A stretch of 64,000 nucleotides of DNA, taken from the NCBI GenBank assembly GCA_003222155.1, contig QHUU01000063.1, positions 4,794 to 68,793 of the forward strand, given 5' to 3'. Shown one piece after another: positions 27,405 to 45,513 of this stretch. The translations under genes were made by a program, and so were the position numbers. Numbering within the stretch: the first letter of the stretch is position 1; the number at the start of each line of letters is the position of its first letter. The stretch comes from Gemmatimonadota bacterium (GTDB taxonomy: Bacteria > Gemmatimonadota > Gemmatimonadetes > Gemmatimonadales > GWC2-71-9). Below the pieces are notes generated by a model. The model was given only the letters and a program-made list of their open reading frames with translations, was not told where the DNA came from and ran no database searches.

Positions 27405-27676
27405 GCCTGGACGAGCGCACAGTCCACGGGCTGCGCATCGTGATCGACCGCGAGCAGTGCGTCGGGTTCGGCGACTGTGCGACGGCAGCCCCCGAGGGTT
27501 TCAAATTGGACGCCGACACCATCGCCACCTTCCTCGAGCCGGAGCGGGTGGAGCGCGAGCGCCTGCTGCGGGCGTGTGACGCCTGTCCGGTAGATGCCAT
27601 AACCGTTTGGGACTCAGAGGGTAGGCAGCTGGTGCCAGGACAGTCCACGGCTAGACGCACAGACGCACCGCGGTGA
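27401..27676 (+). CDS. Small single-cluster ferredoxin
   Basis: GTG overlapping the upstream stop (ATGTGA). CVGFGDC ... CDACPVDAI cysteine pattern. Confidence 0.75.
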   Translation: MSLDERTVHGLRIVIDREQCVGFGDCATAAPEGFKLDADTIATFLEPERVERERLLRACDACPVDAITVWDSEGRQLVPGQSTARRTDAPR

Positions 27677-27746: not shown

Positions 27747-27772
27747 TGTTGCATCTTCTGTTCGCTGCTTAC

Positions 27773-27801
27773 TTGACAGCCTGTCTCGTCGTTCACATAC
27801 T
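27773..27801 (+). promoter_or_regulatory. Sigma-70-like promoter candidate for the USP/radical-SAM/bd-like operon
   Basis: TTGACA (27773-27778), 17-nt spacer, CATACT (27796-27801), about 20 nt upstream of the GTG at 27821. Confidence 0.4.
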
Positions 27802-27820
27802 CGCCGCGCCCAAAGGGGAG

Positions 27821-29794
27821 GTGCCGGTGTACCGCGAGATCTTCGTCCCGGTCGACAACTCGAGTCCTTCGGACTGGGCAGTCGACCGGGCCATCGAGTT
27901 GTGCCGCCAATCCGACGGCCGCATCACCGGAAACCACGTTTATGCCGCCCGCCTCCACGACGTCCGCTTTCGCCAGCTCGAAACCGGGCTCCCGGCCCGG
28001 TTCCAGACTCCCGACGAGATCAAGAAACAGCGCAAGATCCACGACAAGCTGATCGAAAAAGGCCTGCAACTGATCGCGGACAGCTTTCTCGACCAGCTGG
28101 GGAAGCGCTGCGAGGCGGCCGGCGTGCGTCTGACTCGCCAGCTGTTGGAAGGCATCAACTACGAGGAGATCGTCAACGAGGTGAACCGCGGCGCCGGCCG
28201 GCTGCCGGGGCTGATCGGCTTCGACCCCGACCGCGCGGCGGGCTACGACGGGGGCGACAAGACGCGCTCGGACGTGAAGGTGGGTGAGAATGGCCGGCTC
28301 GTGGCCGAAGACGAGGACGCGGCCGCGCGGCTTGCCGGCTCGTCGGGCCGCCAGTACGACCTGCTCGCGATCGGCGCGCACGGTCTGGGCCGTCAGCCCT
28401 ACTCGCAGCTCGGGGGCGTGGTGTCGCGCGTGCTGCGCGGCATCGAGAAGGACGTGCTGCTGGTGCGCGACGAGCGGCCGTTCGCGGGCGGGCGGTTCCT
28501 GGTGTGCGTGGACGGGTCGTCCTACGGCTATCGGGCGATGCGGCTGGCGCTCGAGCTGGCCCAGGCGTTCGGCGGGTCGCTGTTCGTGTGCAGCGCGTTC
28601 GACGTGGAGTACCACCACGTTGTGTTTCACAACATCAAGGATGTTCTCTCCTATCAAGCGTCCAAAGTCTTCAAGTTCGAGGAGCAGGAGGAGCTGCACA
28701 ACAACATCATCGACAAGGGCCTCCTGAAGCTGTGCCAGGCGAACCTGAAGCGCGCCGAGGTGATGGCGCAGGAGTTCCCCGGCGTCTCTCTCACGACGCA
28801 GATCCTGGTGGGCAAGCCGTTCCAGGTGATCATGCAGTGGGCCGAGGAGATCAAGCCGTCGCTGCTGGTGCTGGCGCGGCACGGCGCCCATCGGATCGAA
28901 GGCACCGAGCTCGGTAGCCAGGCGGAGAACCTCGTGCGGCTTGCGCCTTGCAACGTGCTGCTCGCGGGGACGGGCGGGGTGAGGCCCGAGGACATCCCCT
29001 GGATCGAGGAAGACGGGGTGGCGGGGCTGCCCTGGGCGCCGGAGGCCGAGGTGCGGATTCTGCGGGTGCCGCCGTTCGCGCAGGGGATCGCGCGCCGGGC
29101 CGTGGAGGAATACGTGCTGGAGCAGACGCACGGAGAGCCCGCGACGGTCACCAACAAGTGGCTCGACGAGGCGATCCGGAAGCTTCTGCCCACCCACATG
29201 CAGCTCATCATGGGCATCGGGACGGCCGAGGAGATCGCGCTCGCGGAAGTGAAGGCGCAGGAGCAAATGAAGGCGACGAAGGTGCATGGCTGCGACGCCG
29301 ACCCCCAGCCCCTGACCCCTGAAGTTGAAGTGAAATGCCCAGTCACGGGCGCTGTGAGCCGCCGTCCGCGCACCGCGGCCGACCCGATCGTCTGGACCGA
29401 GGAGGCCTGGCAGCGGCTGCAGCTGGTGCCCCTCATCGCCCGGCCGCTGGCGCGCAACACGGTCGAGCGGTTCGCGCGCGGGCACGACATCTGGCGCGTG
29501 AGCACCGGCGTGATGGACGAAAACAAACAGGCGATGATCGCGGCCGACGAGTTCGACGTGGACACGATGATGGTGATGTTCCAGGAGCTGCGCGCCAAGC
29601 AGATCCGCGCCGAGGCCGAAGGGCGCGATGGATTGAGTCCCGAGATGCGGGCGTTCATCGAGGAGGCGAAAGCGCAGGGGATCACGCGTTGCCCCATTCG
29701 GGACATCGAGGAAAAGATGGGGAAGTGCCCGGTCGACTTCGGGGGCCTGACGCCCGAGGAGGCGAAGCAGGCGGTGGAGAAGCTGTTGCAGTGA
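27821..29794 (+). CDS. Tandem universal-stress-protein (USP) domains fused to two PCP_red domains
   Basis: USP motifs (YREIFVPVDNS...; LLAIGAHGLGRQPYSQLGGVVSRVLRGIEKDVLLV; FLVCVDGS...LVLARHGAHRIEGTELGSQAENLVRLAPCNVLL). Then LPWAPEAEVRILRVPPFAQGIARRAVEEY and IVWTEEAWQRLQLVPLIARPLARNTVERFAR. Start at 27821 or 27827 (GTG); the ORF-track start at 27749 is unlikely. Confidence 0.8.
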   Translation: MPVYREIFVPVDNSSPSDWAVDRAIELCRQSDGRITGNHVYAARLHDVRFRQLETGLPARFQTPDEIKKQRKIHDKLIEKGLQLIADSFLDQLGKRCEAAGVRLTRQLLEGINYEEIVNEVNRGAGRLPGLIGFDPDRAAGYDGGDKTRSDVKVGENGRLVAEDEDAAARLAGSSGRQYDLLAIGAHGLGRQPYSQLGGVVSRVLRGIEKDVLLVRDERPFAGGRFLVCVDGSSYGYRAMRLALELAQAFGGSLFVCSAFDVEYHHVVFHNIKDVLSYQASKVFKFEEQEELHNNIIDKGLLKLCQANLKRAEVMAQEFPGVSLTTQILVGKPFQVIMQWAEEIKPSLLVLARHGAHRIEGTELGSQAENLVRLAPCNVLLAGTGGVRPEDIPWIEEDGVAGLPWAPEAEVRILRVPPFAQGIARRAVEEYVLEQTHGEPATVTNKWLDEAIRKLLPTHMQLIMGIGTAEEIALAEVKAQEQMKATKVHGCDADPQPLTPEVEVKCPVTGAVSRRPRTAADPIVWTEEAWQRLQLVPLIARPLARNTVERFARGHDIWRVSTGVMDENKQAMIAADEFDVDTMMVMFQELRAKQIRAEAEGRDGLSPEMRAFIEEAKAQGITRCPIRDIEEKMGKCPVDFGGLTPEEAKQAVEKLLQ

Positions 29795-31065
29795 ACCTCG
29801 TCCCGCACGTGATCGCCTGGAATCTGACCAGGCGCTGCAACCTCGAGTGCGCGCATTGCTACATCTCGGCCGGACCGAGCGAGAGCGCCGCCGCCGAGCT
29901 CGACACGGCGGCGTGCGTCGACATCGTGGACCAGCTGCTCGCGGTGAATCCCGCGCCACTCCTCATCCTGTCGGGAGGTGAGCCGTTGTTGCGGCCGGAC
30001 CTGGGCGAGATCGCCCACTACGCGTGCGCCAACGGCGCGACAGTGGTGGTCGGGACCAACGGCACGCTGCTCACCGAAGAGCGCATCGCGGCGCTCACGG
30101 ACGCCGGCGTGCGGGGCGTCGCGGTCAGCGTCGACTCGCTGCGTCCGTCGTATCACGACAACTTCCGCCACGGCAGAGGCGCTCTCGCCGATGTGCAGGC
30201 GGCGCTCGCGCGGCTGCGCGCGGCACGGCTCGACTTCATCGTGCAGACGACGGTGACCAAGGGCAACCGCGCCGAGCTGGAGCGCTTGGTGGCGTGGTCG
30301 GCAGACGAAGGGGCCGTCTCGTTCAACTGCTACTTTCTGGTGCCGACCGGCCGTGGCGCGGCGCTCTCGGACCTGACGCCGGCGGACTACGAGGCGGTGC
30401 TCGCCGACCTCGCTCGCTGGGAGGGCGCCTATCGGGGCCGCATGCTGGTGCGGGCGAAGTGCGCCCCGCATTTCATGCGCCTCGTGCATCAGACCGACCC
30501 CGAGTCCCCGGTCCTGAACTACGAGACCCGCTGTCCCTGCGGCACGCAGTACTGCCGCATCACCCCGGACGGCAAGGTCACGCCGTGCCCGTACCTGCCC
30601 GAGGTGGCCGGGGATCTGCGGTCGCAGCGCTTCGCCGACGTGTGGCGGTCGTCGCCCCTGTTCCGGCGCCTGCGGGAGGGCCCGCTGCAGGGGAAGTGCG
30701 GGGCGTGCGAGTACCGCGCGGTGTGCGGCGGGTGCCGGGCGCGCGGGTTCGCGCTCGAGGGGGACGTGCTCGCCGCCGATCCGTCGTGCCTTTATCAACC
30801 GACGGGCGACACGGCCGTCATCGAGCCGGCCCGCGCCGTGCGCTACGGCGGCGACTTTCAACCGGCGCTCGCGTGGACGCCCGCGGCGCGCGAGCGCGTG
30901 GCGCGCATCCCCTCGTTCGTGCGGGGGGTCGTGATGGAGCGGGTGGAGGCGTGGGCGCGCCGCCAGGGACGGCGCGAAGTCACACCCGAGCTGCTCGCGG
31001 AAGTGCGCCGCGCGCTGCCGATCGACTTTTCCAAGAAGCGCCCGTTCTTCGTGGCTGACAGCTGA
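29791..31065 (+). CDS. Radical SAM/SPASM enzyme (AhbC/AhbD/NirJ-like) with C-terminal PCP_red domain
   Basis: GTGA overlap with the upstream gene. CNLECAHC radical-SAM cluster motif and LILSGGEPLLRPD. SPASM cysteines CPCGTQYC ... CGACEYRAVCGGCRARG. Tail LAWTPAARERVARIPSFVRGVVMERVEAWARRQG. Confidence 0.9.
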   Translation: MNLVPHVIAWNLTRRCNLECAHCYISAGPSESAAAELDTAACVDIVDQLLAVNPAPLLILSGGEPLLRPDLGEIAHYACANGATVVVGTNGTLLTEERIAALTDAGVRGVAVSVDSLRPSYHDNFRHGRGALADVQAALARLRAARLDFIVQTTVTKGNRAELERLVAWSADEGAVSFNCYFLVPTGRGAALSDLTPADYEAVLADLARWEGAYRGRMLVRAKCAPHFMRLVHQTDPESPVLNYETRCPCGTQYCRITPDGKVTPCPYLPEVAGDLRSQRFADVWRSSPLFRRLREGPLQGKCGACEYRAVCGGCRARGFALEGDVLAADPSCLYQPTGDTAVIEPARAVRYGGDFQPALAWTPAARERVARIPSFVRGVVMERVEAWARRQGRREVTPELLAEVRRALPIDFSKKRPFFVADS

Positions 31066-32780
31066 TGACCGACGGCGCCCTGCTGCTGCAAGCCGCCGCC
31101 GACTCGACTCGCGCCTACGGCGAGTTCCCTGTGATCGGCGCGCGGGCGTTCATATGGATCACGGCCGAAGTGCACCTGATGTTCGCCGCCTTCGTGCTCG
31201 GCGTGCCGATGTTCGCCGTGGTGACGGAGGCGATCGGCATCTTCGGCGGCGACGAGCGCTACGACCGGCTGAGCAAGGAGTTCACGCGCCTCCTGCTCGT
31301 GGCGTACAGCGCCACGGCGATCTGGGGCGCGATGCTGGTGTTCGGCCTGTCGACGCTGTATCCCCGGTTCTGGGCGTACCTGACCGCGATTTTCGCGCCG
31401 TCGATGTGGGCCTACGCGGCACTGTTCCTCGTCGAGTCGTTCACGCTGTACCTCTATTACTACGGCTGGGACCGCTGGAAGAAAGGCCGGGCCAAGCTGG
31501 GCCACTGGACGCTCGGCATCCTGCTCAACCTGTGGGGCACGATCGTGATGTTCATCGCGAACTCGTGGCTCACGTACATGATGTCGCCGCCCCGGGATAT
31601 CACGCCCACCACCGACCCGACCACGATCAAGCTGTGGCACGCGATCGCCAACGCGACGTGGATGCCGATCAACGTGCACCGGGTGATCGCCAACGTCGTC
31701 TTCGGCGGCGCGATCGTGGGGGCGTATGCGAGCTATCGCTTCCTCGCGGCACAGAGCGACGAGGAGCGGGCGCACTACGACTGGATGGGCTACGTCGGGA
31801 ACTTCATCGCGATGTCGGCCCTGATCGTGCTGCCGTTCGCCGGCTACTGGCTGGGGCGCGAGATCTATCAGTACGACCAGTCGATGGGCATCACGATGAT
31901 GGGCGGGTTCATGAGCTGGTTGTGGGTGATCCAGGCGTTCCTGATCGCGGTGCTGTTCCTGACGGGGAACTACTACCTGTGGATCGGGATGGGCCGCATT
32001 CCCGGCGCGGAGCGGTTCCGGCCCTACACCAAGTACCTGCTGATCGTGCTGGTGCTCGGCGCCATCGTGTGGGGCACGCCTCACACGATGATCGCCGACT
32101 CGAAGGAGCTGGCGGCGATGGGCGGATCGCACCACCCGTTCCTGGGCGCCCTGGGCGTGATGAGCGCCAAGAACACTGCCGTGAACCTGATGATCCTGAC
32201 CACGTTCCTCTCGTTCCTGCTGTACCGGCGCGCCAACACCCGTCCGGTGGTCCCGTGGGCGCGCGGCGGGACCATCATCCAGGGGGCGATGTTCGCCCTG
32301 GCGGCCGGCGTCGTGCTGTTTTACGGCATCCGTGGCTATTTCGTCGAGGCCATCGTCCGCATCGGCTTCAGCGTGTATCAGGTGCTCGCCGTCCTGAGCT
32401 GCATCGTGTTCGTGACGGTGATCGACGTGTTGATGGCTCGCGGCGCGCAGTCGCTCGGCACGATCCAGTGGGGCAAGATGCCGCCGCGGTCGCAATACGC
32501 GCTGTTCATCCTCGCGGTGACGTTCACGTGGCTCATGGGGCTGATGGGGTTCGCCCGCTCCGGCATCCGCCAGTACTGGCACGTGTGGCAGGTGATGCAG
32601 GACACGAGCAAGTACGCCGCCACCCCGGCGCTCGGCTACGCGTCCAAGATGATCAGCCTGTGCGTGCTGATCTTTCTCACGCTCGTCGCGTTCGTGTTCT
32701 GGCTCGGCGGGCTGGCGGAGAAGTCCACGTTCGTCGCCTCCGGCGAGCGCCAGGGAGGGGGCCGCCATGTGGGCCACTAA
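31065..32780 (+). CDS. Cytochrome bd subunit-I-like (CydA-like) membrane protein, no Q-loop, no CydB partner
   Basis: 1-nt overlap (TGATG) with the radical SAM gene. CydA-like motifs VHLMFAAFVLGVP, LFLVESFTLYLYYYGWDR, KLGHWTLG, IANSWLTYMMSP, INVHRVIANV. Polytopic throughout. Confidence 0.8.
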   Translation: MTDGALLLQAAADSTRAYGEFPVIGARAFIWITAEVHLMFAAFVLGVPMFAVVTEAIGIFGGDERYDRLSKEFTRLLLVAYSATAIWGAMLVFGLSTLYPRFWAYLTAIFAPSMWAYAALFLVESFTLYLYYYGWDRWKKGRAKLGHWTLGILLNLWGTIVMFIANSWLTYMMSPPRDITPTTDPTTIKLWHAIANATWMPINVHRVIANVVFGGAIVGAYASYRFLAAQSDEERAHYDWMGYVGNFIAMSALIVLPFAGYWLGREIYQYDQSMGITMMGGFMSWLWVIQAFLIAVLFLTGNYYLWIGMGRIPGAERFRPYTKYLLIVLVLGAIVWGTPHTMIADSKELAAMGGSHHPFLGALGVMSAKNTAVNLMILTTFLSFLLYRRANTRPVVPWARGGTIIQGAMFALAAGVVLFYGIRGYFVEAIVRIGFSVYQVLAVLSCIVFVTVIDVLMARGAQSLGTIQWGKMPPRSQYALFILAVTFTWLMGLMGFARSGIRQYWHVWQVMQDTSKYAATPALGYASKMISLCVLIFLTLVAFVFWLGGLAEKSTFVASGERQGGGRHVGH

Positions 32781-33576
32781 CCTGAAGGTCGTCGGGATCG
32801 TGCTGGGGACCCTGGCACTCTATACGCTCATCGCCAACAAGATTCCGCAGGTGCAGTCCGAGGTGCCGCAAACCCTCACCCTGGGGGCGAACGTCACGCC
32901 CGAACAGCTGGTGGCGGCGGGAGAGAAGGTGTTCAACGGCATCGGCGGCTGCCCCACCTGCCACGGGCTCGGCACGCGCGCGCCCAATCTCCTCACGGAC
33001 GAGAAGGGCACCGGACCGATCGGCGCCCGCTGCGGCAAGCGGGAAGCCGGCAAGAGCTGCAAGCAGTATCTGTACGAGTCGCTCGACAATCCGACCGCGT
33101 TCGTCGTGACGGGCTATCAGCCGATCATGCCGGTCATGACCAGGCAGCTCTCGCCAGAGCAGATCTGGTCGGTGATCGCCTTCTTGGAGTCGCAGGGCGG
33201 CACCGTGGACGTAACAGGGGACGACGTAGCCAAAGCGAAGCAACTGACCCCGGGCGCAAGCCCGGCGAATTCGGGAGGTAGTCCTGGTGGTGGGGCCTTT
33301 GCCGCCGGCAGCACGGACCCCAAAGCCATCATCCAGGCGGCGGGGTGCCTCGCGTGCCACAAGCTCGACGGCCAGGGACAGGTGATCGCGCCCGATCTCA
33401 CGCATGTGGGCGCGCGCCGGGACGCGGAATCGATCCGCAAGAAGATCCTGGATCCGGCGTCGTCGATCGCGAAGGGCTACGAGAAGCTCGCCGGGATCAT
33501 GCCCAAGACGTTCGGCACCATGATGAGCGCCGCGCAGCTCGAAGCGCTGGTGCAGTATCTGGCGGGGCACAAGTGA
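32767..33576 (+). CDS. Membrane-anchored dihaem c-type cytochrome
   Basis: N-terminal TM segment and two CxxCH motifs (CPTCH, CLACH), each followed by a Met-containing distal region. 14-nt overlap with the upstream gene. Confidence 0.85.
   Translation: MWATNLKVVGIVLGTLALYTLIANKIPQVQSEVPQTLTLGANVTPEQLVAAGEKVFNGIGGCPTCHGLGTRAPNLLTDEKGTGPIGARCGKREAGKSCKQYLYESLDNPTAFVVTGYQPIMPVMTRQLSPEQIWSVIAFLESQGGTVDVTGDDVAKAKQLTPGASPANSGGSPGGGAFAAGSTDPKAIIQAAGCLACHKLDGQGQVIAPDLTHVGARRDAESIRKKILDPASSIAKGYEKLAGIMPKTFGTMMSAAQLEALVQYLAGHK
33244..33265. repeat. REP-like element family A, partial copy 4, embedded in the cytochrome c inter-domain linker
   Basis: CTGACCCCGGGCGCAAGCCCGG is identical over 22 nt to 45522-45543. 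It is translated as ..LTPGASPAN.. Confidence 0.6.
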
Positions 33577-34391
33577 CCGCACCCGCGCTGCGGCGCTCCG
33601 CCACGCACCCGTTCTGGCAGGCGGTGGGAATTCTCGTTATCGCCTACATCGTAGTCGTGTGGGTGGTGCCGCTGCTCCCGGGCAGCGCCATCGTCCCGAA
33701 GAGCGTGGTGCTCCAATACATGGTCACGGTGCTGGTCGGCGTGCTCATCTACGTGAGCGACAACGAGGAACGTTGGGCCCGCTTCAAAGAGCCGATCGAG
33801 GCCGTGCTGGCCGAGCCGCGGCTCCGGGTGGTGCGGGCCGTGCTGCTCGTCGTGGTGACGGCGCTGGTCGGGCTCGTGGCGTACGGGCAGGTGGCCACCA
33901 CCGTCGCCGCCCCACCCAATCTCCGCTCGATCCACCCCGCCCCGCCCGCGGAAATCACGTTCCGGGGCAGGTCGATCACGCTGACAGGGCTCGAGAACCC
34001 GCTGCGCGCGCACCCGGAGTCGCTCGCCCTCTACCTGGCCGAGGGGAAGGGCGTCTACTACCGCAACTGCCTGCCCTGTCACGGGGACCACCTCGACGGT
34101 CAGGGGCACTTCGCATCGGGGTTCAATCCACTGCCGGCGAACTTCCAGGACAACGGCACCATCGCCCAGCTCACGGAGAGCTTCGTGTTCTGGCGCGTGG
34201 CCAAGGGCGGGCCGGGTCTGCCGCGTGAGGGCACGCCGTGGAACTCGGCGATGCCGAAGTGGGAGGACTTTCTCACGGAGCGCGAGATCTGGTCGGTGAT
34301 CCTGTTCCTGTACGATCAAACCGGGTGGACTCCACGAACCTGGGAGAAAACGGGGACGGGGGACGGGGGACGGGGGACGGGGCATGATTGA
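33573..34391 (+). CDS. Polytopic membrane-anchored monohaem c-type cytochrome
   Basis: GTGA overlap with the upstream gene. Three or four TM segments, then CLPCHGDHLDG and a ...NSAMPKWEDFLTEREIWSVILFLY cytochrome c fold. Confidence 0.8.
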   Translation: MTAPALRRSATHPFWQAVGILVIAYIVVVWVVPLLPGSAIVPKSVVLQYMVTVLVGVLIYVSDNEERWARFKEPIEAVLAEPRLRVVRAVLLVVVTALVGLVAYGQVATTVAAPPNLRSIHPAPPAEITFRGRSITLTGLENPLRAHPESLALYLAEGKGVYYRNCLPCHGDHLDGQGHFASGFNPLPANFQDNGTIAQLTESFVFWRVAKGGPGLPREGTPWNSAMPKWEDFLTEREIWSVILFLYDQTGWTPRTWEKTGTGDGGRGTGHD

Positions 34392-34452
34392 CGGGCTTCT
34401 GGTCCTCGCGCTCCTCGCACCACTCGTCCCCCGTCCCCCTTCCCTCGTCCCG
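34351..34452. repeat. (GGGGACG)x4 heptamer array plus inverted (CGTCCCC-like)x4 array forming a long hairpin over a gene junction
   Basis: Left arm 34352-34379 is four exact GGGGACG units. Right arm 34425-34452 is CGTCCCC CGTCCCC CTTCCCT CGTCCCG. The 42-nt loop holds the ATG at 34384 and the TGA at 34389-34391. Confidence 0.8.
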
Positions 34453-35961
34453 CTGCAGGACACGACGAAAGGGAAGGCAGTTTATGTGAAGTGGTGCGCC
34501 GGTTGCCATGGCGATGGCGGCGCGGGCGACGGCCCCTCCGCCGCGCACATGCTTCCCCGGCCCCGCAACTTCACCGGCGCGATCTATAAGATCCGCAGTA
34601 CGGCCTCGGGTCAGCTGCCGACCGACGCCGACCTGATGCGGGCGATCGACGAAGGGCTGCCCGGGAGCGCGATGCCGGCGTGGAAGGGGCGCCTGTCGGA
34701 CGGCGAGCGGCGCGACGTGGCCGGGTACATCAAGACGTTCTCCGCGTTCTTCGCGGACACGAGCCAGCACGCGGCGGCGCTCAAGTTCTCGGGCGAGCCG
34801 GGCGGTGGCACCGGCGCGGCGGCGCTCAAGACCGGGCGCCAGTTCTACGATTCCATCGGGTGCCGCAAGTGTCACGGCGACCAGGGGCGGGGAGACGGGC
34901 CGTCCGCGCCCACGCTCAAGGACGACGCCGGGTTTCCCATCTTCGCGGCGGACCTGCATCAGAGCTGGCGGTTTCGCGGGGGGGGCAGTGCGGCGGACAT
35001 CTACCACCGGCTGCGCACCGGGCTCGACGGGACACCGATGCCCTCGTTCTCGGACCTGATCGACCAGAAGTTCCTGACCGACGAGCAGCTGTGGCGGCTG
35101 GCCCAGTACGTACGCTCGCTCTCGCCGCCCGACCCGCCCGAGGTGCGCGACGTCATCCATGCGCCGCAGATCGCCGGCCCCGCGCCGGTCTCGCCCGACG
35201 ACTCGGCGTGGGCGCGCGCCGACCGCTACTGGTTCCCGCTCGTCGGGCAGGTGGTGCGCAAGGCGCGCTGGTTCGCGCCCGCGGTGACGGGTGTGTGGGT
35301 GCAGGCGCTGCACGACGGCCACACCCTCGCGCTGCGGTTGAGCTGGGACGATCGCACCCAGAGCCCTGACAGCGCGTGGCTCGGGTTCGAGCAGCGCGTG
35401 CTCGAGACCGTCGCCGGCGACGACTCGGGCCCCCCCAAGGCGGAGCCGTGGCCCGACCAGCTGGCGGTGCAGTTCCCCCGCCGTCTCCCGGAGGGTTCGG
35501 GGGGCATGGAGCGCCCCTACTTCTTGATGGGAAGCGAGACCGACCCGGTGTACCAGTGGCGCTGGACCAGCCGGCCGCGCAAGAGCGTCGCGGGCCTGGC
35601 CCGGGGCATCGAGCGGTTCGACACGCTCCCCGGGGCGTTGGCGGGGCAGGCGAGCTTCGATCACGGCGAGTGGCGGCTGGTGTTCACGCGCGCCCTTGCC
35701 ACGCCGGATACCGCCAACGAAGTTCAGCTTGAGGCCGGCCGGGCGATTCCGGTGGCCTTCTTCGGCTGGGACGGCTCCAGCGGGGAACACGGCTCGCGCA
35801 TGGCGGTGAGCACCTGGTACTTCCTGGCGCTCGATCGGCCCACGCCGCCGGGCGTGTTCATTTCTCCGGTGCTGGCCATGCTCGTGACGCTGGGACTGGG
35901 GCTCGTGGTCGTCCGGCGGGCCCGGCGGCGCGGTACGGCGCGTGCAGGGAGACAGCGATAG
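34384..35961 (+). CDS. Dihaem cytochrome c fused to an EB_dh/DOMON-like (ethylbenzene-dehydrogenase gamma-type) haem-binding domain, C-terminal TM anchor
   Basis: CAGCH and CRKCH motifs. Then WVQALHDGHTLALRLSWDD...DQLAVQFP...YFLMG...YQWRW...GEWRLVFTRAL...VAFFGWDGSSGEHGSRMAVSTW, as in EB_dh-family domains. Terminal TM segment ISPVLAMLVTLGLGLVVV. Confidence 0.8.
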   Translation: MIDGLLVLALLAPLVPRPPSLVPLQDTTKGKAVYVKWCAGCHGDGGAGDGPSAAHMLPRPRNFTGAIYKIRSTASGQLPTDADLMRAIDEGLPGSAMPAWKGRLSDGERRDVAGYIKTFSAFFADTSQHAAALKFSGEPGGGTGAAALKTGRQFYDSIGCRKCHGDQGRGDGPSAPTLKDDAGFPIFAADLHQSWRFRGGGSAADIYHRLRTGLDGTPMPSFSDLIDQKFLTDEQLWRLAQYVRSLSPPDPPEVRDVIHAPQIAGPAPVSPDDSAWARADRYWFPLVGQVVRKARWFAPAVTGVWVQALHDGHTLALRLSWDDRTQSPDSAWLGFEQRVLETVAGDDSGPPKAEPWPDQLAVQFPRRLPEGSGGMERPYFLMGSETDPVYQWRWTSRPRKSVAGLARGIERFDTLPGALAGQASFDHGEWRLVFTRALATPDTANEVQLEAGRAIPVAFFGWDGSSGEHGSRMAVSTWYFLALDRPTPPGVFISPVLAMLVTLGLGLVVVRRARRRGTARAGRQR

Positions 35962-35989: not shown

Positions 35990-36727
35990 ATGGGGAAGCT
36001 CGGAGCTGTGGCGGCGACGGGAGTGGCGGTGCTGGTGCTGGCGCTCGGGGGGTGGATGCGCGCGCCCCTCCCCGCCGCACAGGGGGGCGGGACCATCAGC
36101 GGCAAGGTGAAGTTCACCGGCGCGAAGCCCGCCATGCCGAAGATCGACATGAGCGAGGAGCCGAAGTGCAAGGCGAAGTACACGGCCGCGCCGCCCACAG
36201 ACGAGGCCGTGGTGGTGAACGCGAACGGCACCCTCGCCAACGTGTTCGTCTACGTGAAGTCGGGCCTCCCGGCGAGCTACAAGGCGCCCGCGCCCGCCGG
36301 GCCGGTGACGCTCGACCAGGACGGCTGCCGCTACCATCCGCACGTGTTCGGCATCCTGGTCGGCCAGAACCTCGCCATCAAGAACTCCGACGGCATCCTG
36401 CACAACATCAAGGCGAAGGGGACGAAGAATCGTCCGTTCAACATCAGCCAACCGACGACCATGACGTCGGAGCGGACCTTCACGGCTCCCGAGGTGATGG
36501 TGCCGCTCGAGTGCAACGTGCACGGCTGGATGCACGCGTGGCTGGGCGTGTTGCCGCACCCGTTCTTCGCGGTCTCGGGCACGGACGGCAGCTTCACGAT
36601 CAAGGGGCTCCCGCCCGGGACCTATACGATCGAGGCCTGGCAGGAGAAGTACGGCGCGCAGACCGCGACCGTGACGGTGGCGGGGAGTGAGACGAAGACG
36701 GCGGATTTCGGTTTCGCCGCCAAGTGA
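35990..36727 (+). CDS. Cupredoxin (type-1 copper site) with carboxypeptidase-regulatory-like C-terminal domain
   Basis: GGAGG RBS and a signal anchor. Copper ligand pattern ILHNIKA ... CNVHGWMHAW (H...C-x2-H-x2-M). Then FTIKGLPPGTYTIEAW. Confidence 0.75.
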   Translation: MGKLGAVAATGVAVLVLALGGWMRAPLPAAQGGGTISGKVKFTGAKPAMPKIDMSEEPKCKAKYTAAPPTDEAVVVNANGTLANVFVYVKSGLPASYKAPAPAGPVTLDQDGCRYHPHVFGILVGQNLAIKNSDGILHNIKAKGTKNRPFNISQPTTMTSERTFTAPEVMVPLECNVHGWMHAWLGVLPHPFFAVSGTDGSFTIKGLPPGTYTIEAWQEKYGAQTATVTVAGSETKTADFGFAAK

Positions 36728-36746
36728 ACTAACCGAGGAGCGCCCG

Positions 36747-37418
36747 ATGCATTGGTGGCTGCCGCTCAAGGGTTCGACGTTCGCGGGGGAGGTGGACGGC
36801 CTGTTCCTGGCGATCACGATCATCACCGGGATCGCGTTCGTGCTGGTCGAGGTGGGGCTGATCTGGTTCGTCGTGAAATACCGGCAGCGGCCGGGCCGGA
36901 AGGCCTTCTATACGCACGGGAGCACCCGCGCGGAAGTGATCTGGACCGCGATCCCCGCGGTGACCATGGTGGCGCTGGGCCTCATCAGCAACCACTACTG
37001 GGTCCGGATCAAGGGGCGCAACAGCGTGCCCCCGAACGCCTACCCGATCGCGATCCACGCCAAGCAGTTCGAGTGGCAGGTCACCTATCCGGGGCCGGAC
37101 GGGAAGCTGGGGACGAGCGACGACTTCACCGTCCGCAACCAGCTGCACGTGCCCGTCGGACGGCCCATCGTCGTCCGCCTCACCTCGGAAGACGTGATCC
37201 ACTCGTTCTTCGTTCCCGTGTTCCGGGTGAAGCAGGACGCGGTTCCGGGGATGGACATCAATGCCTGGTTCCAGGCGACGGTGCCGGGCACCTATGAGCT
37301 GGGCTGCGCCGAGCTGTGCGGGTTGGGGCACTACCGCATGCGGGCGCAGGTGTTCGTGCAAAGCCAGGAAGACTACGACGCCTGGACGAAGCAGGCTGCT
37401 CAGGAGGCCTCGTCATGA
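36747..37418 (+). CDS. coxB: Cytochrome c oxidase subunit II (CuA)
   Basis: Two N-terminal TM segments. VIHSFFVP and the CuA site CAELCGLGHYRM. Confidence 0.9.
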   Translation: MHWWLPLKGSTFAGEVDGLFLAITIITGIAFVLVEVGLIWFVVKYRQRPGRKAFYTHGSTRAEVIWTAIPAVTMVALGLISNHYWVRIKGRNSVPPNAYPIAIHAKQFEWQVTYPGPDGKLGTSDDFTVRNQLHVPVGRPIVVRLTSEDVIHSFFVPVFRVKQDAVPGMDINAWFQATVPGTYELGCAELCGLGHYRMRAQVFVQSQEDYDAWTKQAAQEASS

Positions 37419-40203: not shown

Positions 40204-41010
40204 GTGGTGCTCACGGCCGCGGCGGGGTTCTACCTCGGCTCGAGCGCGGGGGTCGACGTGCGGCTGCTGGCGCACACCCTGGTCGGCGTGGCCCTCGTGG
40301 CCGCGGGGACCAACGCGTTCAATCAGTGGCGCGAGCGCGACGTCGACGCGCGCATGCGGCGCACGCAGGGCCGGCCGCTGCCGTCGGGGCGCGTGACCCC
40401 GCGCGCCGCCGCCGCGTTCGCCGCGGGCATCTCGGTGGCGGGCGTGGGCTATCTCGCCCTCAGCGTGAACCTCCTCACCGCCGGGCTCGCGGCACTCACG
40501 CTCGCGAGCTACGTGCTGCTCTACACCCCGCTCAAGCGCACCACGACTCTCAATACGCTAATTGGCGCGGTGCCGGGCGCCCTGCCGATCGTGGGCGGAT
40601 GGACCGCGGCGGGCGGGGCCCTGGGGCCGGCCGTGGCGGCGCTGTTCTGGATCCTGTTCCTGTGGCAGCTCCCCCATTTCCTCGCGCTCGCCTGGATCTA
40701 CCGGGAGGACTACCGGCGCGGTGGCCTCGCGATGCTGTCGGTCTCGGACGTCGACGGTCGGCACACCGGTCGCATGGTCCTGCTGTACGCGACGGCGCTC
40801 GTCCCCGTGAGCCTCTTGCCCACGCTGCTCGGCGTCACCGGCGGGTTGTATTTCTTCGGGGCGCTGGCGCTGGGGCTCGCGTATGCGGGGGCGTCGGTCG
40901 CGATGACGCGAGCGGCGACCACGGCGCGCGCGTGGCGGCTGTTTGTCGTGTCGATCGCCTACCTCCCGGCGCTGCTCACGCTCATGGTGGTGGACAAGGT
41001 CGCCGCCTAG
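40204..41010 (+). CDS. ctaB: Protohaem IX farnesyltransferase (haem O synthase); annotated start probably too short
   Basis: UbiA-family motifs NQWRERDVDARMRRTQGRPLPSGR and YREDYRRGG. The conserved N-terminal LELTKPRITQL is encoded in frame upstream (40171-40203) with no ATG/GTG/TTG before it. Confidence 0.85.
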   Translation: MVLTAAAGFYLGSSAGVDVRLLAHTLVGVALVAAGTNAFNQWRERDVDARMRRTQGRPLPSGRVTPRAAAAFAAGISVAGVGYLALSVNLLTAGLAALTLASYVLLYTPLKRTTTLNTLIGAVPGALPIVGGWTAAGGALGPAVAALFWILFLWQLPHFLALAWIYREDYRRGGLAMLSVSDVDGRHTGRMVLLYATALVPVSLLPTLLGVTGGLYFFGALALGLAYAGASVAMTRAATTARAWRLFVVSIAYLPALLTLMVVDKVAA

Positions 41011-41426: not shown

Positions 41427-42524
41427 ATGAGCACGAAGCTCCCCGAGAAACGCCAAGTCGTCCGCTTCGCCTTCTACAAGCTCGACAGCGCGTGGCGCCG
41501 GCTCTCGGCCGAGCGGCAGGCGAGCGCCAAGCTCGAGTTCGGCGAGACGATCGAGAGCTTCGCCGGCCGGCTGCTGCTCCGCCCGTACGGGCTCGTCGGC
41601 ATCCGGGGGGACTGCGACTTCCTGTTGTGGCAGGTGGCGGAAGACCTGGATTCCCTGGTCGCGCTGCAGACCGCGCTCAACCGCACGGACCTGGGAGGCT
41701 ATCTCGCGGTCCCGTACAGCTACCTCGCGATGACGCGGCGGTCGATCTACGAGTTTCCCGAAGCGCCGGGAGGAGGTCAGCCGTCACGACTCGTGATCCG
41801 ACCGAGCGACGCGCGCTATCTGTTCGTGTACCCGTTCATCAAGACGCGGGGCTGGTACATGCTGCCCAAGGCCGAGCGGCAGGGCATGATGGACGAGCAC
41901 GTGCGCATCGGGCGCCAGTACCCGTCGATCCGGCTCAACACGACGTATTCGTATGGGCTCGACGACCAGGAGTTCATCGTCGCCTTCGAGGGCGACAACC
42001 CCGCCGACTTTCTCGACCTGGTGATGGAGCTGCGCGAGAGCAAGGCGTCGTCTTACACGCTGCGCGACACGCCGACGTTCACCTGCGTCCAGATGTCGCT
42101 GTGGGACATGCTGGACACCCTGGGGGGAGCGGGGTCGGCGCAAGCGGTGTCGCGCCGGCCCACCCGGGCGGACGGCTATACGCCGGTGGCGACGCTCGCC
42201 GATCTGCCGGCCGGCACGAGCCGGCGGGTGTACGTGGGCGGGGATGCGGTCGCGCTGTTCAACGTGAACGGCACCGTGCACGCCATCGCCAACCGCTGCA
42301 CCCATGCGCGCGCCAGCCTCTCCGAAGGCGTCGTCGACCCGGCACGCTGCGCGGTGACGTGCCCGTGGCACGAGGGCGTCTTTTCACTCGAGACGGGGCA
42401 GGTGCTGGGCGGGCCGCCGTCGCTGCCGGTCGCCACCTATCGGGTGAAGGTCGAGGGCGACACGGTCCTCATCGCTCCCCCCGGTCTGATCGACGCGCGC
42501 GAGCCGATTGCCCCTCGCTCCTGA
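41427..42524 (+). CDS. hemQ: Coproheme decarboxylase (HemQ/ChdC, chlorite-dismutase family) fused to a C-terminal Rieske [2Fe-2S] domain
   Basis: N-terminal ~250 aa have the Cld-family pattern (FAFYKLD..., LFVYPFIKTRGWYMLPKAERQGMMDEHVRIG, FIVAFEGDNPADFLDLVMELR). C-terminal ~110 aa carry the Rieske ligands CTHARASLSEG ... CPWHEGVFSL. Confidence 0.85.
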   Translation: MSTKLPEKRQVVRFAFYKLDSAWRRLSAERQASAKLEFGETIESFAGRLLLRPYGLVGIRGDCDFLLWQVAEDLDSLVALQTALNRTDLGGYLAVPYSYLAMTRRSIYEFPEAPGGGQPSRLVIRPSDARYLFVYPFIKTRGWYMLPKAERQGMMDEHVRIGRQYPSIRLNTTYSYGLDDQEFIVAFEGDNPADFLDLVMELRESKASSYTLRDTPTFTCVQMSLWDMLDTLGGAGSAQAVSRRPTRADGYTPVATLADLPAGTSRRVYVGGDAVALFNVNGTVHAIANRCTHARASLSEGVVDPARCAVTCPWHEGVFSLETGQVLGGPPSLPVATYRVKVEGDTVLIAPPGLIDAREPIAPRS

Positions 42525-43539
42525 CGACAGCCGCTTCCTCAAGGCGTGCCGCTCGGAGCCCACCGATGTGACGCCGGTGTGGTTCATGCGGCAGGCCGGC
42601 CGCTACCTGCCGGAATACCGCGCGTTGCGGCAGAAGCACTCGCTGCTCGAGCTGTGCCACAAGCCGGAGTTAGCGGCCCAGGTCACCTTGCAGCCGATCG
42701 AGCGCCTGGGTGTGGACGCGGCGATTCTGTTCGCCGACATCCTGCTGCCGTTCGAGCCGCTGGGGCTGGGCCTCACGTTCTCCGCGGGCGAGGGCCCGCA
42801 GATCACCCGCCCCGTGCGCGAGGCGGGCCAGGTGCTGGAGCTGGCGCCGGTGGACCCCGTCACCGACCTCGCCTACGTACTGGAGGCGGCGCGGCTCGCG
42901 GCGCGGGCACTGCCCCCCCATGTCCCGCTCATCGGCTTCGCCGGCGCGCCGTTCACGCTGGCGAGCTACGCGATCGAGGGCGGTGCCACGCGCAGCTTCG
43001 CCCTCACCAAGCGGTTCATGTACTCGGAGCCGCGCGCGTGGCACCAGCTGCTCGAGCGGCTCGCGGAGCTGGTCGGTGCCTATCTGGCCGCCCAGGCCGA
43101 CGCCGGGGCGCGCGCGCTGCAGCTGTTCGACAGCTGGGTGGGATGTCTCTCCCCGGCCGATTACGCGAACTATGTGTTCCCTCACAGCCAGCGGGCGCTC
43201 GAGCTGGCGGGCGCGTCGGGCGTGCCGGTGATCCATTTCGGGACCGATACCGCGGGATTGCTCGCGGACTTCGCCCGGGCGGGGGGCGACGTGATCGGCG
43301 TCGATTGGCGCGTCCCCCTGGACGTGGCGTGGGAGCGGATCGCCCCGGCCTCCATTCAGGGGAACCTCGATCCCGTGGCGCTGCTCGCCCCCCGCGTGGA
43401 GCTCGAGCGCCAGACGCGGGAGGTCCTCGCCCGCGCGGGCTCGAGGCCCGGACACATCTTCAACCTGGGCCACGGCGTGCTTCCCGAGACGCCGGTCGAG
43501 GCGCTCCAGGCGGTGGTGGAGTGGGTGCATGGCGGCTGA
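42508..43539 (+). CDS. hemE: Uroporphyrinogen decarboxylase
   Basis: PVWFMRQAGRYLPEYRALR N-terminal signature and ...IFNLGHGVLPETP near the C-terminus. Confidence 0.95.
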   Translation: MPLAPDDSRFLKACRSEPTDVTPVWFMRQAGRYLPEYRALRQKHSLLELCHKPELAAQVTLQPIERLGVDAAILFADILLPFEPLGLGLTFSAGEGPQITRPVREAGQVLELAPVDPVTDLAYVLEAARLAARALPPHVPLIGFAGAPFTLASYAIEGGATRSFALTKRFMYSEPRAWHQLLERLAELVGAYLAAQADAGARALQLFDSWVGCLSPADYANYVFPHSQRALELAGASGVPVIHFGTDTAGLLADFARAGGDVIGVDWRVPLDVAWERIAPASIQGNLDPVALLAPRVELERQTREVLARAGSRPGHIFNLGHGVLPETPVEALQAVVEWVHGG

Positions 43540-44449
43540 GGCGGAGGCCATCGCCGTCCTCCTCATGGCGTACGGCGGACCGGACAGCCTGGACGACGTC
43601 GAGCCCTATCTGCTCGACGTGCGCGGCGGCCGGCCGGTGAGCCCGGAGTTCACGGCGGAGATCAAGGCGCGCTATGCCCGGATCGGCGGTCGCTCGCCGA
43701 TTCGCGAGCTCACGGAGGCGCAGGCGGCGGGTGTCCAGCGGCTGCTGGGCGACCGCTTCGCTGTGCGCGTCGGCATGCGTCACTGGCATCCCTACATCGC
43801 CGACGCCGTCGAGCGGATGGTCGCGGCGGGCCAGCGCCGCCTGGTGGGCATCGCGCTGGCGCCGCACTACTCGTCGATGTCGGTCGGCGCCTATCAGAAA
43901 AAGCTGCTCGCCGCCACCGCCGGGCGGCTCGATGTCGCGCTGGTACGGAGCTGGGGCGAGCACACGAAGTTCCTCACCGCTGTAGCCGGTCGGTTGACGC
44001 AGGCGTTGGCGCGGTTCCCGTCTCCCGCCGCGGTGCAGGTGCTCTTCACCGCGCACAGCCTGCCCCAGCGGATTCTGGCAGCCGGTGATCCCTATCCCTC
44101 CGAGTTGCGGGCCAGCGCCGCGGCGGTGGCGCAGCGGGCCGGACTCACGGCGTGGCACTTCGCCTACCAGAGCGCCGGCGCCACCGCGGAGCCATGGCTC
44201 GGGCCGGAGGCGGGCGCCCTGATGACGGATCTCGCCGGCAAGGGCCATCAGGCGTTTCTGATCGTTCCCATCGGGTTCGTGTGCGATCACGTCGAGGTGC
44301 TGTACGACGTGGACGTCGTGTACCGGGAGCTCGCCGGGCGCCTGGGCGTGCGTCTCGAGCGCACGGCCTCCCTCAACGACGACCCGCTGCTCGTGGGCGC
44401 GATCGCGGAGATCGCCCGCGATGCGGCCGCCGGCCGGGGATGGCTGTGA
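43529..44449 (+). CDS. hemH: Ferrochelatase (coproporphyrin ferrochelatase type by context)
   Basis: AVLLMAYGGPDSLDDVEPYL, FTAHSLPQRI and PIGFVCDHVEVLYDVD motifs. Confidence 0.9.
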   Translation: MAAEAEAIAVLLMAYGGPDSLDDVEPYLLDVRGGRPVSPEFTAEIKARYARIGGRSPIRELTEAQAAGVQRLLGDRFAVRVGMRHWHPYIADAVERMVAAGQRRLVGIALAPHYSSMSVGAYQKKLLAATAGRLDVALVRSWGEHTKFLTAVAGRLTQALARFPSPAAVQVLFTAHSLPQRILAAGDPYPSELRASAAAVAQRAGLTAWHFAYQSAGATAEPWLGPEAGALMTDLAGKGHQAFLIVPIGFVCDHVEVLYDVDVVYRELAGRLGVRLERTASLNDDPLLVGAIAEIARDAAAGRGWL

Positions 44450-45513
44450 GCGCCACGGTGGCGGTCGCGGGCGCGGGCCTGGCGGGCCTCTCGGCGGCAT
44501 GGGAGCTGTCGGGGGCGGGAGCGACCGTCGTGGTGCTCGACGCGGGGCGACGCTCGGGCGGAGTAGTCGTGACGGAGCTGCGCGACGGCTTCGTGGTCGA
44601 AGCCGGGCCCGATGGATTCCTCGCGGCCGAGCCGGACATCCAGGAGCTGGCGCGCGAGGCCGGCATCGGCGGGCGACTGGTCGATCAACTCACCAGCGGG
44701 TCGTCGTTATGGACCGGGCGGCGGATGGAGCCCCTGGCCGAGGGACAGGCGGCCGCGCTGCTCGGCATCCAGGGGGTGACGCAGTCCGCGATGGACTGCG
44801 GGTTCCGGAGCTTCGCCACCGGCATGGCGGACCTCGTGGAGGCACTGGTCGCCCGGGTGGGTCCGGCGATCCGACCGGCCCAGGGCGTGACCGGCCTCGC
44901 GCCCGCGACGCGAGGTTGGCGACTCTCGCTGGGCGGCGGCTCCACGCTCGAAGCGGAGGCCGTCATCCTCGCGCTGCCGGCGTGGGTAGCGGCGCGACTC
45001 GTGGCGGCGGCCGGCGTCCCGGCCGCGCGGCGACTCGATGACGTGATTTATTATCCGACCACGACGGTGTCGCTCGCGTACCGGGGCGATCAACTCGCGA
45101 CGCCGCTCGCCGGGACGGGATTCGTGTCGGCCGGAGAGTGGGCGGGCGTCGTGCGCGCCTGCTCGTACTCATGGCTCAAGTATCCCGGTCGCGCGCCGCC
45201 CGGCCACGCCCTGCTGCGCGCGTTCGTCGGCCCCCTGGACGACGGTCCCGCCGCGGCCGCTCATGCGGAACTCGCCAGCATCTTGGGAATCAAGGGGCTC
45301 CCGCTGTGGAGTCGCGCGTTCACGTGGCCGCGGGGTCTGCCGCGCTATAAGCCGGGCCACGCCGGGCACGTGGCCGCGGTGCGCGAACGTCTGGCCCGGC
45401 TGCCACCGCTGGCGATCGCAGGCGCGGGGTTCGATGGGGCGGGAGTGTCGGCGTGCGTCAAGTCGGGAAGAGCGGCTGCGCGGCAGGTGATGGAGCGGCT
45501 GGGGCGTGCGTAG
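44440..45513 (+). CDS. hemY: Copro-/protoporphyrinogen oxidase, HemY type (FAD)
   Basis: Dinucleotide fold VAVAGAGLAGLSAAWEL, and a C-terminal AGAGFDGAGVSACVKSG. Overlaps the hemH stop. Confidence 0.85.
   Translation: MAVSATVAVAGAGLAGLSAAWELSGAGATVVVLDAGRRSGGVVVTELRDGFVVEAGPDGFLAAEPDIQELAREAGIGGRLVDQLTSGSSLWTGRRMEPLAEGQAAALLGIQGVTQSAMDCGFRSFATGMADLVEALVARVGPAIRPAQGVTGLAPATRGWRLSLGGGSTLEAEAVILALPAWVAARLVAAAGVPAARRLDDVIYYPTTTVSLAYRGDQLATPLAGTGFVSAGEWAGVVRACSYSWLKYPGRAPPGHALLRAFVGPLDDGPAAAAHAELASILGIKGLPLWSRAFTWPRGLPRYKPGHAGHVAAVRERLARLPPLAIAGAGFDGAGVSACVKSGRAAARQVMERLGRA

Follow-up and report, generated by a model that had tools for sequence, protein, structure and literature searches.

Coproheme decarboxylase (ChdC, also called HemQ), the terminal enzyme of the coproporphyrin-dependent (CPD) pathway, is mostly described as a stand-alone protein, as in the actinobacterial enzymes of known structure (6XUB/6XUC, 9MIQ). 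Fused forms have also been described: Cutibacterium acnes has a CpfC-ChdC fusion, and some actinobacterial ferrochelatases (CpfCs) carry a [2Fe-2S] cluster (PMC8529089, PMC10427985), while PitA of haloarchaea joins ChdC to an ABM-like domain, with ChdC serving aerobic and AhbD anaerobic growth after upstream steps of the Ahb type (PMC5746218). Here we report a different architecture, a ChdC joined by a flexible tether to a Rieske [2Fe-2S] ferredoxin domain, predicted from a gene at positions 41427-42524 (+) of a 64,000-nucleotide stretch of DNA from a Gemmatimonadota bacterium (assembly GCA_003222155.1, contig QHUU01000063.1, positions 4,794 to 68,793; hereafter the window). An earlier, sequence-only reading of this DNA had recognized the fusion and had set it against characterised ChdCs that all stand alone, a statement that holds for most of them but passes over the C. 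acnes and haloarchaeal proteins (PMC8529089, PMC10427985, PMC5746218).

With the stand-alone actinobacterial ChdCs the predicted protein shares the fold, the positions of Tyr135 and His158, the VYPF..K and N-T motifs and the same place in the CPD pathway beside hemE, hemH and hemY, but it has about 130 additional C-terminal residues, has no counterpart of the distal His118 and is only 23-29% identical to them. It resembles the C. acnes fusion and the [2Fe-2S] CpfCs in being a fused terminal haem enzyme and in tying a [2Fe-2S] cluster to the CpfC/ChdC step. The C. acnes partner, however, is a whole ferrochelatase and the CpfC cluster is of the Cys4 type, whereas the partner here is a His2Cys2 Rieske module and the CpfC of the window is predicted to be clusterless. 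In PitA, too, ChdC has a C-terminal accessory domain borne on a linker, and the AhbD-like genes and the AhbAB triple fusions described below parallel the haloarchaeal situation, although the accessory domain of the archaeal protein is a haem-binding ABM fold and that of the window protein a redox cluster domain.

We found no description of a ChdC-Rieske protein in full-text literature combining Rieske, 2Fe-2S or the host phyla with ChdC, HemQ or chlorite dismutase, where a passing mention is possible, and the database names of the fusions are automatic ("chlorite dismutase family protein", "Rieske 2Fe-2S domain-containing protein"). The architecture is real, widespread and apparently uncharacterised.

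One gene for two domains

Judged from its sequence and surroundings, the window gene almost certainly encodes a ChdC/HemQ, the terminal enzyme of a CPD pathway, coupled to hemE-hemH-hemY and bearing a tethered Rieske domain with intact cluster ligands. The gene is one ATG-to-TGA frame of 365 codons with zero internal stops, assigned by Pfam, NCBIfam and full-length homologues, and is continuous through both domains, as the sequence-only reading had it. A check for a frameshift, set beforehand, found none. In a genome scan at one genome per species, 122 loci encoded a relative; the 80 that were kept, all from Gemmatimonadota metagenome-assembled genomes, encode the full-length fusion at 77-96% identity, and in every one tblastn runs through the Rieske region in a single frame. 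The closest relative, in genome AG49, has 96% amino-acid identity to the window protein. These matches place the source organism in the Gemmatimonadales. In a database of 5.8 billion proteins, every one of the best 120 clusters has both Pfam domains, and the best 120 clusters of a second database search, made with the divergent fusion P0129 as query, are also two-domain proteins.

The G+C content at third codon positions (GC3) in the frame of the gene is 0.77-1.00 overall and 0.90-0.93 at the domain junction, within a window of 68.7% G+C. Runs of gaps in blastn alignments of the gene are compensating (1+1 or 4+5) and represent alignment noise. A merging of two genes by frameshift or misassembly is ruled out by the conserved fusion and the continuous GC3: because the same fusion recurs across genomes and GC3 is unbroken, the gene is not a sequencing artefact.

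The coproheme decarboxylase domain

The ChdC domain (residues 1-234; 41427-42128, +) consists of two ferredoxin-like halves. That this part belongs to the chlorite dismutase family, as first read from the sequence, was borne out by Chlor_dismutase PF06778 (residues 34-222, E=8.8e-57, 192 bits, cutoff 25) and by ChdC entries among its matches in the Protein Data Bank, from Streptomyces coelicolor (9mhq/9miq, 1e-27) and Corynebacterium diphtheriae (6xub, 5e-21). An AlphaFold2 monomer model, built from an alignment of 128 sequences with 41-94% identity to the window protein, has a mean predicted local distance difference test score (pLDDT) of 87.2 and a predicted TM-score of 0.69, with both domains mostly above 90; Foldseek compares its N-terminal domain with chlorite dismutase (Cld) and ChdC structures at target TM-scores of 0.80-0.85. 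NCBIfam equivalog cutoffs were not reached, either by HemQ_actino NF042928 (123.3 vs 235) or by PRK12276 (77.8 vs 253), which makes an actinobacterial or firmicute HemQ orthologue less likely while leaving the assignment as a ChdC unaffected. By sequence, the fusion represents a divergent ChdC clade outside the curated HemQ equivalogs.

Residue numbers were anchored on the C. diphtheriae mutant entries Y135A (7q4g) and W183Y (7q4f), with a chain-index offset of +2. In the C. diphtheriae enzyme (CdChdC), Tyr135 is the radical site and His158 the proximal ligand (PMC10427985). Both align with residues of the same number in the window protein, the catalytic radical-site tyrosine lying in a VYPFIK motif (codon 41829-41831, +) and the proximal haem-iron ligand (codon 41898-41900, +) in the motif MMDEHVRIG (residues 154-162), where the sequence-only reading had placed it; the motif FIVAFEGDNPADFLDLVMELR that it also quoted is present at residues 183-203. 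Tyr135 and His158 are invariant in 128 of 128 aligned fusions, and conservation across the fusions collected reaches at least 97% at each of Y135, K139, H158 and N171.

The distal side is different. In CdChdC the distal base, His118, lies in a flexible inter-domain loop (PMC10427985, PMC9310987), and its loss leaves "negligible Compound I formation" when H2O2 is supplied (PMC9310987). The corresponding loop of the window protein, counterpart of the flexible linker and access-channel loop of CdChdC, spans approximately residues 102-130 (41730-41816, +) and reads TRRSIYEFPEAPGGGQPSRLVIRPSDA; at the position of His118 it reads EFPEAPGGGQPS, with no histidine, and residues 111-120 have a pLDDT of 62. 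Residues 1-234 contain one histidine only, His158. A distal base equivalent to His118 is impossible in this domain because its sole histidine is the proximal ligand. Five divergent fusions that we examined likewise have no histidine in the loop.

Asn171 lies 13 residues past the proximal histidine, the position of the catalytic Arg173 in the Cld of N. defluvii. The window protein shares with Cld the Pfam family and the pentameric ferredoxin-like fold (target TM-score 0.84 to N. defluvii Cld), but Asn171 replaces the distal arginine, the sequence matches are weaker, and the genes around it belong to haem biosynthesis and not to (per)chlorate reduction. Identity as a chlorite dismutase is ruled out by Asn171, the ranking of sequence matches and the gene context.

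Two forms of error could still be imagined together, namely that a hemQ and a Rieske ferredoxin gene were merged by frameshift or that the N-terminal domain is a Cld. Foldseek does place Nitrospira Cld structures as high as ChdCs, as expected of a common fold, and the NCBIfam HemQ equivalog models fall below their cutoffs. Yet the one-frame fusion is found in 80 of 80 independent genome assemblies and in hundreds of metagenome clusters, with GC3 unbroken at the junction; ChdC sequences match about 13 orders of magnitude better than Cld (1e-27 vs about 1e-14); the nearly invariant Asn171 sits where Cld has its catalytic arginine; and the hemE-hemH-hemY surroundings point to ChdC. Artefact or misassignment is effectively refuted, and we give it only a negligible probability.

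Towards the C-terminus of the ChdC domain, Cys220 (42084-42086, in TFTC) is invariant in the fusions and shared with their closest stand-alone relatives; CdChdC and the S. coelicolor enzyme have glycine at this position.

The tether and the Rieske domain

The two domains are joined by a tether (residues 235-250; 42129-42176, +) that is poorly conserved and of low predicted confidence, with pLDDT of 65-68 over residues 231-250 and below 50 at 239-242. Its length varies from 13 to 82 residues across 288 fusions, with a mode of 18. The model fits two rigid domains on a flexible tether, with the Rieske domain as a mobile shuttle.

The Rieske domain itself (residues 251-350; 42177-42476, +; pLDDT 85-97) is defined by Rieske PF00355 (residues 252-338, E=2.7e-18, 66.1 bits, cutoff 20.3), by Rieske_2 PF13806 (residues 251-349, E=6.8e-17) and by alignment with ferredoxins. 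The C-terminal motifs thus score as Rieske in a profile search, as the sequence-only reading required, and the C-terminal placement stands; the span that it gave, 42189-42524, starts too late and ends too late, since residues 351-365 form a low-confidence tail (pLDDT about 50). Both ligand motifs it had named are present, C291-T-H293 (42297-42305, +) and C312-P-W-H315 (42360-42371, +), in register with solved ferredoxins. The four cluster ligands are intact in 288 of 288 full-length fusions, from two phyla and at 44-96% overall identity; four seeming exceptions merely have an inter-motif loop of 21-22 residues.

The Rieske half can be aligned along its whole length of about 100 residues with the CarAc-type ferredoxin 3gce (5e-15), BphF (1fqt, 2e-14), the NDO ferredoxin and TodB. 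The best NCBIfam models are HcaC-type dioxygenase ferredoxin equivalogs, whose cutoff was not reached (87.7 vs 113), and there is no dioxygenase gene in the window; this half resembles the oxygenase ferredoxins HcaC and BphF without being one. A NirD-like assignment, suggested earlier, did not hold in the strict sense: NirD TIGR02378 is below cutoff (59.9 vs 74.65), and HcaC, BphF and CarAc match best. A degenerate Rieske domain of NirD type is ruled out by that score together with the full conservation of ligands.

The only cysteines of the fusion protein are at positions 63, 220, 291, 308 and 312. The disulfide pair of bc1/b6f-type Rieske proteins (CTHLGC ... CPCHGS) is not present, as CTH is not followed by a cysteine and the second motif reads CPWHEG, and the PetC models, with cutoffs of 154-250, give this protein 17-18 bits. 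Because there are no disulfide-forming cysteines and the best matches are oxygenase ferredoxins, the Rieske half appears from its sequence to be a complete module of the low-potential electron-shuttle type. Oxygenase-type Rieske ferredoxins have potentials near -150 mV. In BphF, CarAc, HcaC, TodB and the NDO ferredoxin the CxH...CxxH ligands are in the same register and the bc1-type disulfide is likewise missing, but those proteins are free-standing one-electron shuttles from a flavoprotein reductase to a non-haem iron oxygenase, whereas the module described here is tethered to a decarboxylase that depends on haem as its substrate.

Since the ligands are kept in all 288 fusions and the domain persists through further fusion to a siroheme decarboxylase (below), the proposition that the Rieske domain is functional is well supported by sequence conservation.

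Distribution and related architectures

Further fusion clades, at 44-56% identity (P0123, P0124, P0125 and P0129), emerged when 1.84 billion cluster representatives were searched exhaustively with HMMER. With P0129 as query, at least 120 more two-domain proteins were found, with the source names Dehalococcoidia, Anaerolineae, "Chloroflexi bacterium" and Gemmatimonadota. With P0125 as query, about 45 full-length triple fusions of 713-850 aa were recovered (P0125, P0298-P0341), in which ChdC and Rieske domains are followed by a tandem NirDL-HTH/AsnC_trans_reg2 module resembling the siroheme decarboxylase AhbA/B. Their sources are Herpetosiphonaceae, Ktedonobacterales and other Chloroflexota, and the contigs that carry them are up to 715 kb long. 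In an unbootstrapped neighbour-joining tree of the ChdC domain only, nearly all fusions form one group nested among stand-alone relatives, the exception being the pair P0129/P0377, which lies outside it; such a topology fits a single main fusion event with subsequent spread.

The surroundings of the fusion differ outside Gemmatimonadota. At one Chloroflexota locus (L089) the fusion is the first gene of a complete CPD operon, followed by hemH, hemA, hemC, hemD, hemB, hemE, hemY and hemL. An Anaerolineae locus (L083) has the fusion, a ferrochelatase, a radical-SAM/SPASM gene that reaches 479 bits on the AhbD model (cutoff 500) and a gene for a GltD-like NAD(P)H oxidoreductase. At L085 there are no haem genes near the fusion. 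Two triple-fusion genes (L081:10001-12211 and L084:10001-12178) lie in siroheme-route clusters comprising siroheme synthase, hemA, hemC, cobA-hemD, hemB, DUF1802, an aldo/keto reductase, the triple fusion and hemL, and neither has hemE, hemH or hemY nearby. The triple fusion implies a hybrid route from siroheme to coproheme and on to ChdC.

The aldo/keto reductase of these clusters, about 330 aa long, recurs at four loci (L082:9010-10008, L081:8991-9977, L084:8585-9577 and L086:2504-3511). Its orthologues are 57-80% identical across phyla and lie on the same strand directly upstream of this ChdC clade, in Dehalococcoidia, in Chloroflexota with the triple fusion and beside the closest stand-alone ChdC (Rubrobacteraceae-like). 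As an explanation of the Rieske domain the reductase is ruled out, as it also accompanies a stand-alone ChdC and is absent from the window.

ChdC is a frequent fusion partner. Among other architectures (P0365-P0370, P0371, P0235, P0347, P0361) we observed ChdC with GATase (PF00117; Abditibacteriaceae), with PAS, with Peptidase_M48 and with AhbAB in the absence of Rieske.

The haem operon and its surroundings

Upstream of the fusion in the window lie ctaC (36675-37418), ctaD, ctaE, ctaF, ctaB and one or two small membrane open reading frames; downstream follow hemE, hemH and a hemY/cgoX-type oxidase gene. The last gene of the ctaC-D-E-F block, ctaB (40204-41010, +), encodes haem O synthase (TIGR01473 249.5, cutoff 210.3). 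Uroporphyrinogen decarboxylase is encoded by hemE (42508-43539, +; TTG start; PF01208 3.6e-124; TIGR01464 406.7, cutoff 303), a ferrochelatase of 306 aa by hemH/cpfC (43529-44449, +; PF00762 2.6e-79; TIGR00109 224.8, cutoff 124.6), and an FAD oxidase of the coproporphyrinogen/protoporphyrinogen oxidase family by the hemY/cgoX-type gene (44440-45513, +; Amino_oxidase and NAD_binding_8; TIGR00562 120.5, cutoff 97.85). The haem operon is of the coproporphyrin-dependent type, and the fusion is its ChdC.

This order is conserved. Among related loci with enough flanking sequence, hemE lies directly downstream of the fusion in 77 of 77 and ctaB directly upstream in 67 of 70, and a downstream hemY is kept in 69 loci. 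The link with neighbouring respiratory genes that the sequence-only reading had drawn holds in Gemmatimonadota, but not in Chloroflexota, whose haem operons have no cox genes. In the window, the fusion overlaps hemE by 17 nt (42508-42524), hemE overlaps hemH by 11 nt (43529-43539) and hemH overlaps hemY by 10 nt (44440-44449), which suggests translational coupling of the haem genes. A read-level database protein of 609 aa (P0357) has ChdC, Rieske and URO-D domains in one chain, and is probably a frameshift read-through at an overlap like that between the fusion and hemE.

The ferrochelatase of the window has a single cysteine and no C-terminal extension, and therefore cannot hold a [2Fe-2S] cluster of the kind found in some actinobacterial CpfCs. 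Of the terminal haem steps encoded in this operon, ChdC is thus predicted to carry the sole Fe-S centre.

Further upstream (29791-31065, +) is a gene for a radical-SAM/SPASM protein that resembles AhbD/NirJ2 and has PCP_red as an extra domain at its C-terminus. The protein scores 290 bits against the AhbD cutoff of 500, and over 359 aa it shares 35% identity with the radical-SAM product of the Anaerolineae locus (L083:12118-13224). These observations suggest a pair of coproheme decarboxylases as in Haloferax, with this protein as the oxygen-independent candidate and the fusion as the O2-dependent member. The gene before that of the AhbD-like protein (27749-29794, +) codes for 681 aa with Usp and PCP_red (protochlorophyllide-reductase 57 kD C-terminal) domains, two of each, and is itself preceded by a gene for a small ferredoxin of single-cluster 4Fe-4S type (Fer4_13; about 27440-27676, +). 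PCP_red is also fused to the N-terminus of a close ChdC relative (P0133, 330 aa), and its occurrence suggests a module for handling tetrapyrroles.

Between the AhbD-like gene and the cox genes lies an unusual respiratory cluster: a 571-aa membrane protein (31065-32780, +) that matches cytochrome bd subunit I only weakly (70.8 bits) and NCBIfam not at all, and several c-type cytochrome genes (32671-35961, +), one of them fused to EB_dh, a domain like the haem-b subunit of type II DMSO reductases. Elsewhere in the window, and unrelated to the fusion, is a bacterial serpin gene (994-2274, -; PF00079, 362 bits, full-length match).

What the Rieske domain may do

We tentatively propose, while leaning slightly to the doubtful side, that the Rieske domain gives electrons to the coproheme iron and that the enzyme makes its own oxidant from O2. 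The Rieske domain would swing on its tether and deliver single electrons to the iron of bound coproheme, which is both substrate and cofactor. Fe(III)-coproheme would be reduced to Fe(II) and bind O2, and a second electron with protons would lead through a ferric-hydroperoxo species to Compound I. Compound I would oxidise Tyr135, and the tyrosyl radical would take a beta-hydrogen from propionate 2 and then from propionate 4, with loss of CO2 and formation of a vinyl group at each. With its oxidant formed in this way at the catalytic site, much like haem oxygenase or P450, the enzyme would not depend on free H2O2, and an external reductase would be required for the Rieske cluster. The likeness to these enzymes lies in bound haem acting as substrate and cofactor (haem oxygenase) and in the use of O2 with electrons from a ferredoxin or reductase; it is a functional analogy with no kinship of sequence or fold.

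The proposal draws on several features of the protein and its distribution: this class of module feeds O2-activating iron centres and is of low-potential type; the ChdC domain is without a distal base for heterolysis of H2O2; the fusion persists where the local siroheme-route clusters have no H2O2-producing CgoX; and a flexible tether suits a shuttle. The literature, for its part, goes no further than to hold H2O2 "most probably" the in vivo oxidant of ChdC (PMC10427985). Taken as a whole, identity and mechanism together, this is our best explanation, and we regard it as nearly, though not quite, an even bet. The sequence-only reading had suggested that the cluster might control the generation of oxidant, quench radicals or couple haem synthesis to the respiratory redox state, and the present results are compatible with each of these possible roles.

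Several points weigh against the mechanistic part. The direction of electron flow is one that we infer. Firmicute ChdCs have neither a distal base nor a Rieske domain and yet work with H2O2, and loss of the distal histidine did not prove specific to the fusions, that idea being ruled out by the many stand-alone relatives that also have no histidine in the loop, while others have one. The product of hemY/CgoX, an H2O2 producer, is encoded in the same operon, so that H2O2 would be available. A gene for a ferredoxin reductase was looked for and not found in the 64-kb window, nor does one recur beside the fusion in the 8 other neighbourhoods, of which only the Anaerolineae locus has its GltD-like gene. 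The AlphaFold2 monomer, finally, gives no distance from cluster to haem in the native pentamer.

If H2O2 does remain the oxidant, the cluster could act as a sensor that gates activity by Fe-S, iron, O2 or reactive-oxygen status, a role also suggested for ferrochelatase [2Fe-2S] clusters, or as a protective centre that quenches off-pathway Compound I/II or tyrosyl radicals before they oxidise haem or cross-link it. We consider this unlikely, but it has points in its favour: excess H2O2 harms ChdC-bound haem and cross-links haem to protein (PMC9310987), actinobacterial CpfCs bear [2Fe-2S] clusters of unclear role and C. acnes has CpfC joined to ChdC (PMC8529089, PMC10427985), so that a [2Fe-2S] centre recurs in the CpfC/ChdC pair, and in the window the ferrochelatase has its single cysteine and no predicted cluster, hemY provides a source of H2O2 within the operon and a dedicated reductase was not found. 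Against it, domains of this type are obligate electron shuttles, Fe-S sensors are usually not of the Rieske-ferredoxin type, and quenching would also need a reductant. A role in handing on the iron in the right redox state appears improbable to us. Here the Rieske domain would reduce the Fe(III) of the product or of incoming coproheme to Fe(II), aid release and pass haem b in the ferrous state to a following enzyme such as CtaB. The conservation of ctaB upstream in 67 of 70 Gemmatimonadota loci fits such a hand-off, and ferrous haem is reportedly the form that haem O synthase uses. For ChdC there is no structure with haem b bound, and product release is not understood (PMC10427985). The ctaB linkage is missing in Chloroflexota, however, where the fusion is equally conserved, and stand-alone ChdCs release haem without a Rieske domain.

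Electrons might also run the other way, with the cluster taking them from the propionates to the respiratory chain and freeing decarboxylation from O2 and H2O2, much as HemG/CgoN does relative to HemY. The fusion adjoins cytochrome oxidase genes in Gemmatimonadota, and an oxygen-independent counterpart of ChdC in CPD organisms is "yet unknown" (PMC10965808). Initiation by ChdC, however, needs a very strong oxidant, a tyrosyl radical formed from Compound I (PMC10427985, PMC10548856), which a low-potential Rieske centre cannot supply, and genes for AhbD-like radical-SAM enzymes, which represent the solution known for anaerobic conditions, lie both in the vicinity (29791-31065) and beside the Anaerolineae fusion. 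For a low-potential cluster, such an outlet is chemically the least plausible of these three rivals to electron donation, and we hold it to be very improbable.

Electron donation by the Rieske domain can be extended to a broader proposal, which we think somewhat unlikely as formulated: that ChdC-Rieske is a self-sufficient haem synthase, driven by its ferredoxin domain, dependent on O2 and independent of H2O2, and that the triple fusion of Chloroflexota serves an aerobic hybrid route from siroheme through didecarboxysiroheme and coproheme to haem b, which generates no H2O2 of its own and would for that reason need a built-in electron input. If this is true, coproheme would be turned into haem by a third kind of chemistry, in addition to those of the H2O2-dependent ChdC and the radical-SAM enzyme AhbD.

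Significance

The source of the oxidant used by ChdC in the cell is unsettled, and free H2O2 harms the haem bound to the enzyme. A natural, strongly conserved ChdC that has a built-in one-electron carrier and no distal base offers a direct experimental handle on this question. The triple fusions and the AhbD-like genes together bear on the mixing of three haem pathways in nature and on the identity of the enzyme that takes the place of ChdC without oxygen, which the literature calls "yet unknown" (PMC10965808). Should the proposed mechanism be true, haem synthesis in Gemmatimonadota and Chloroflexota, both large phyla of the environment, would use a previously unrecognised way of generating its oxidant.

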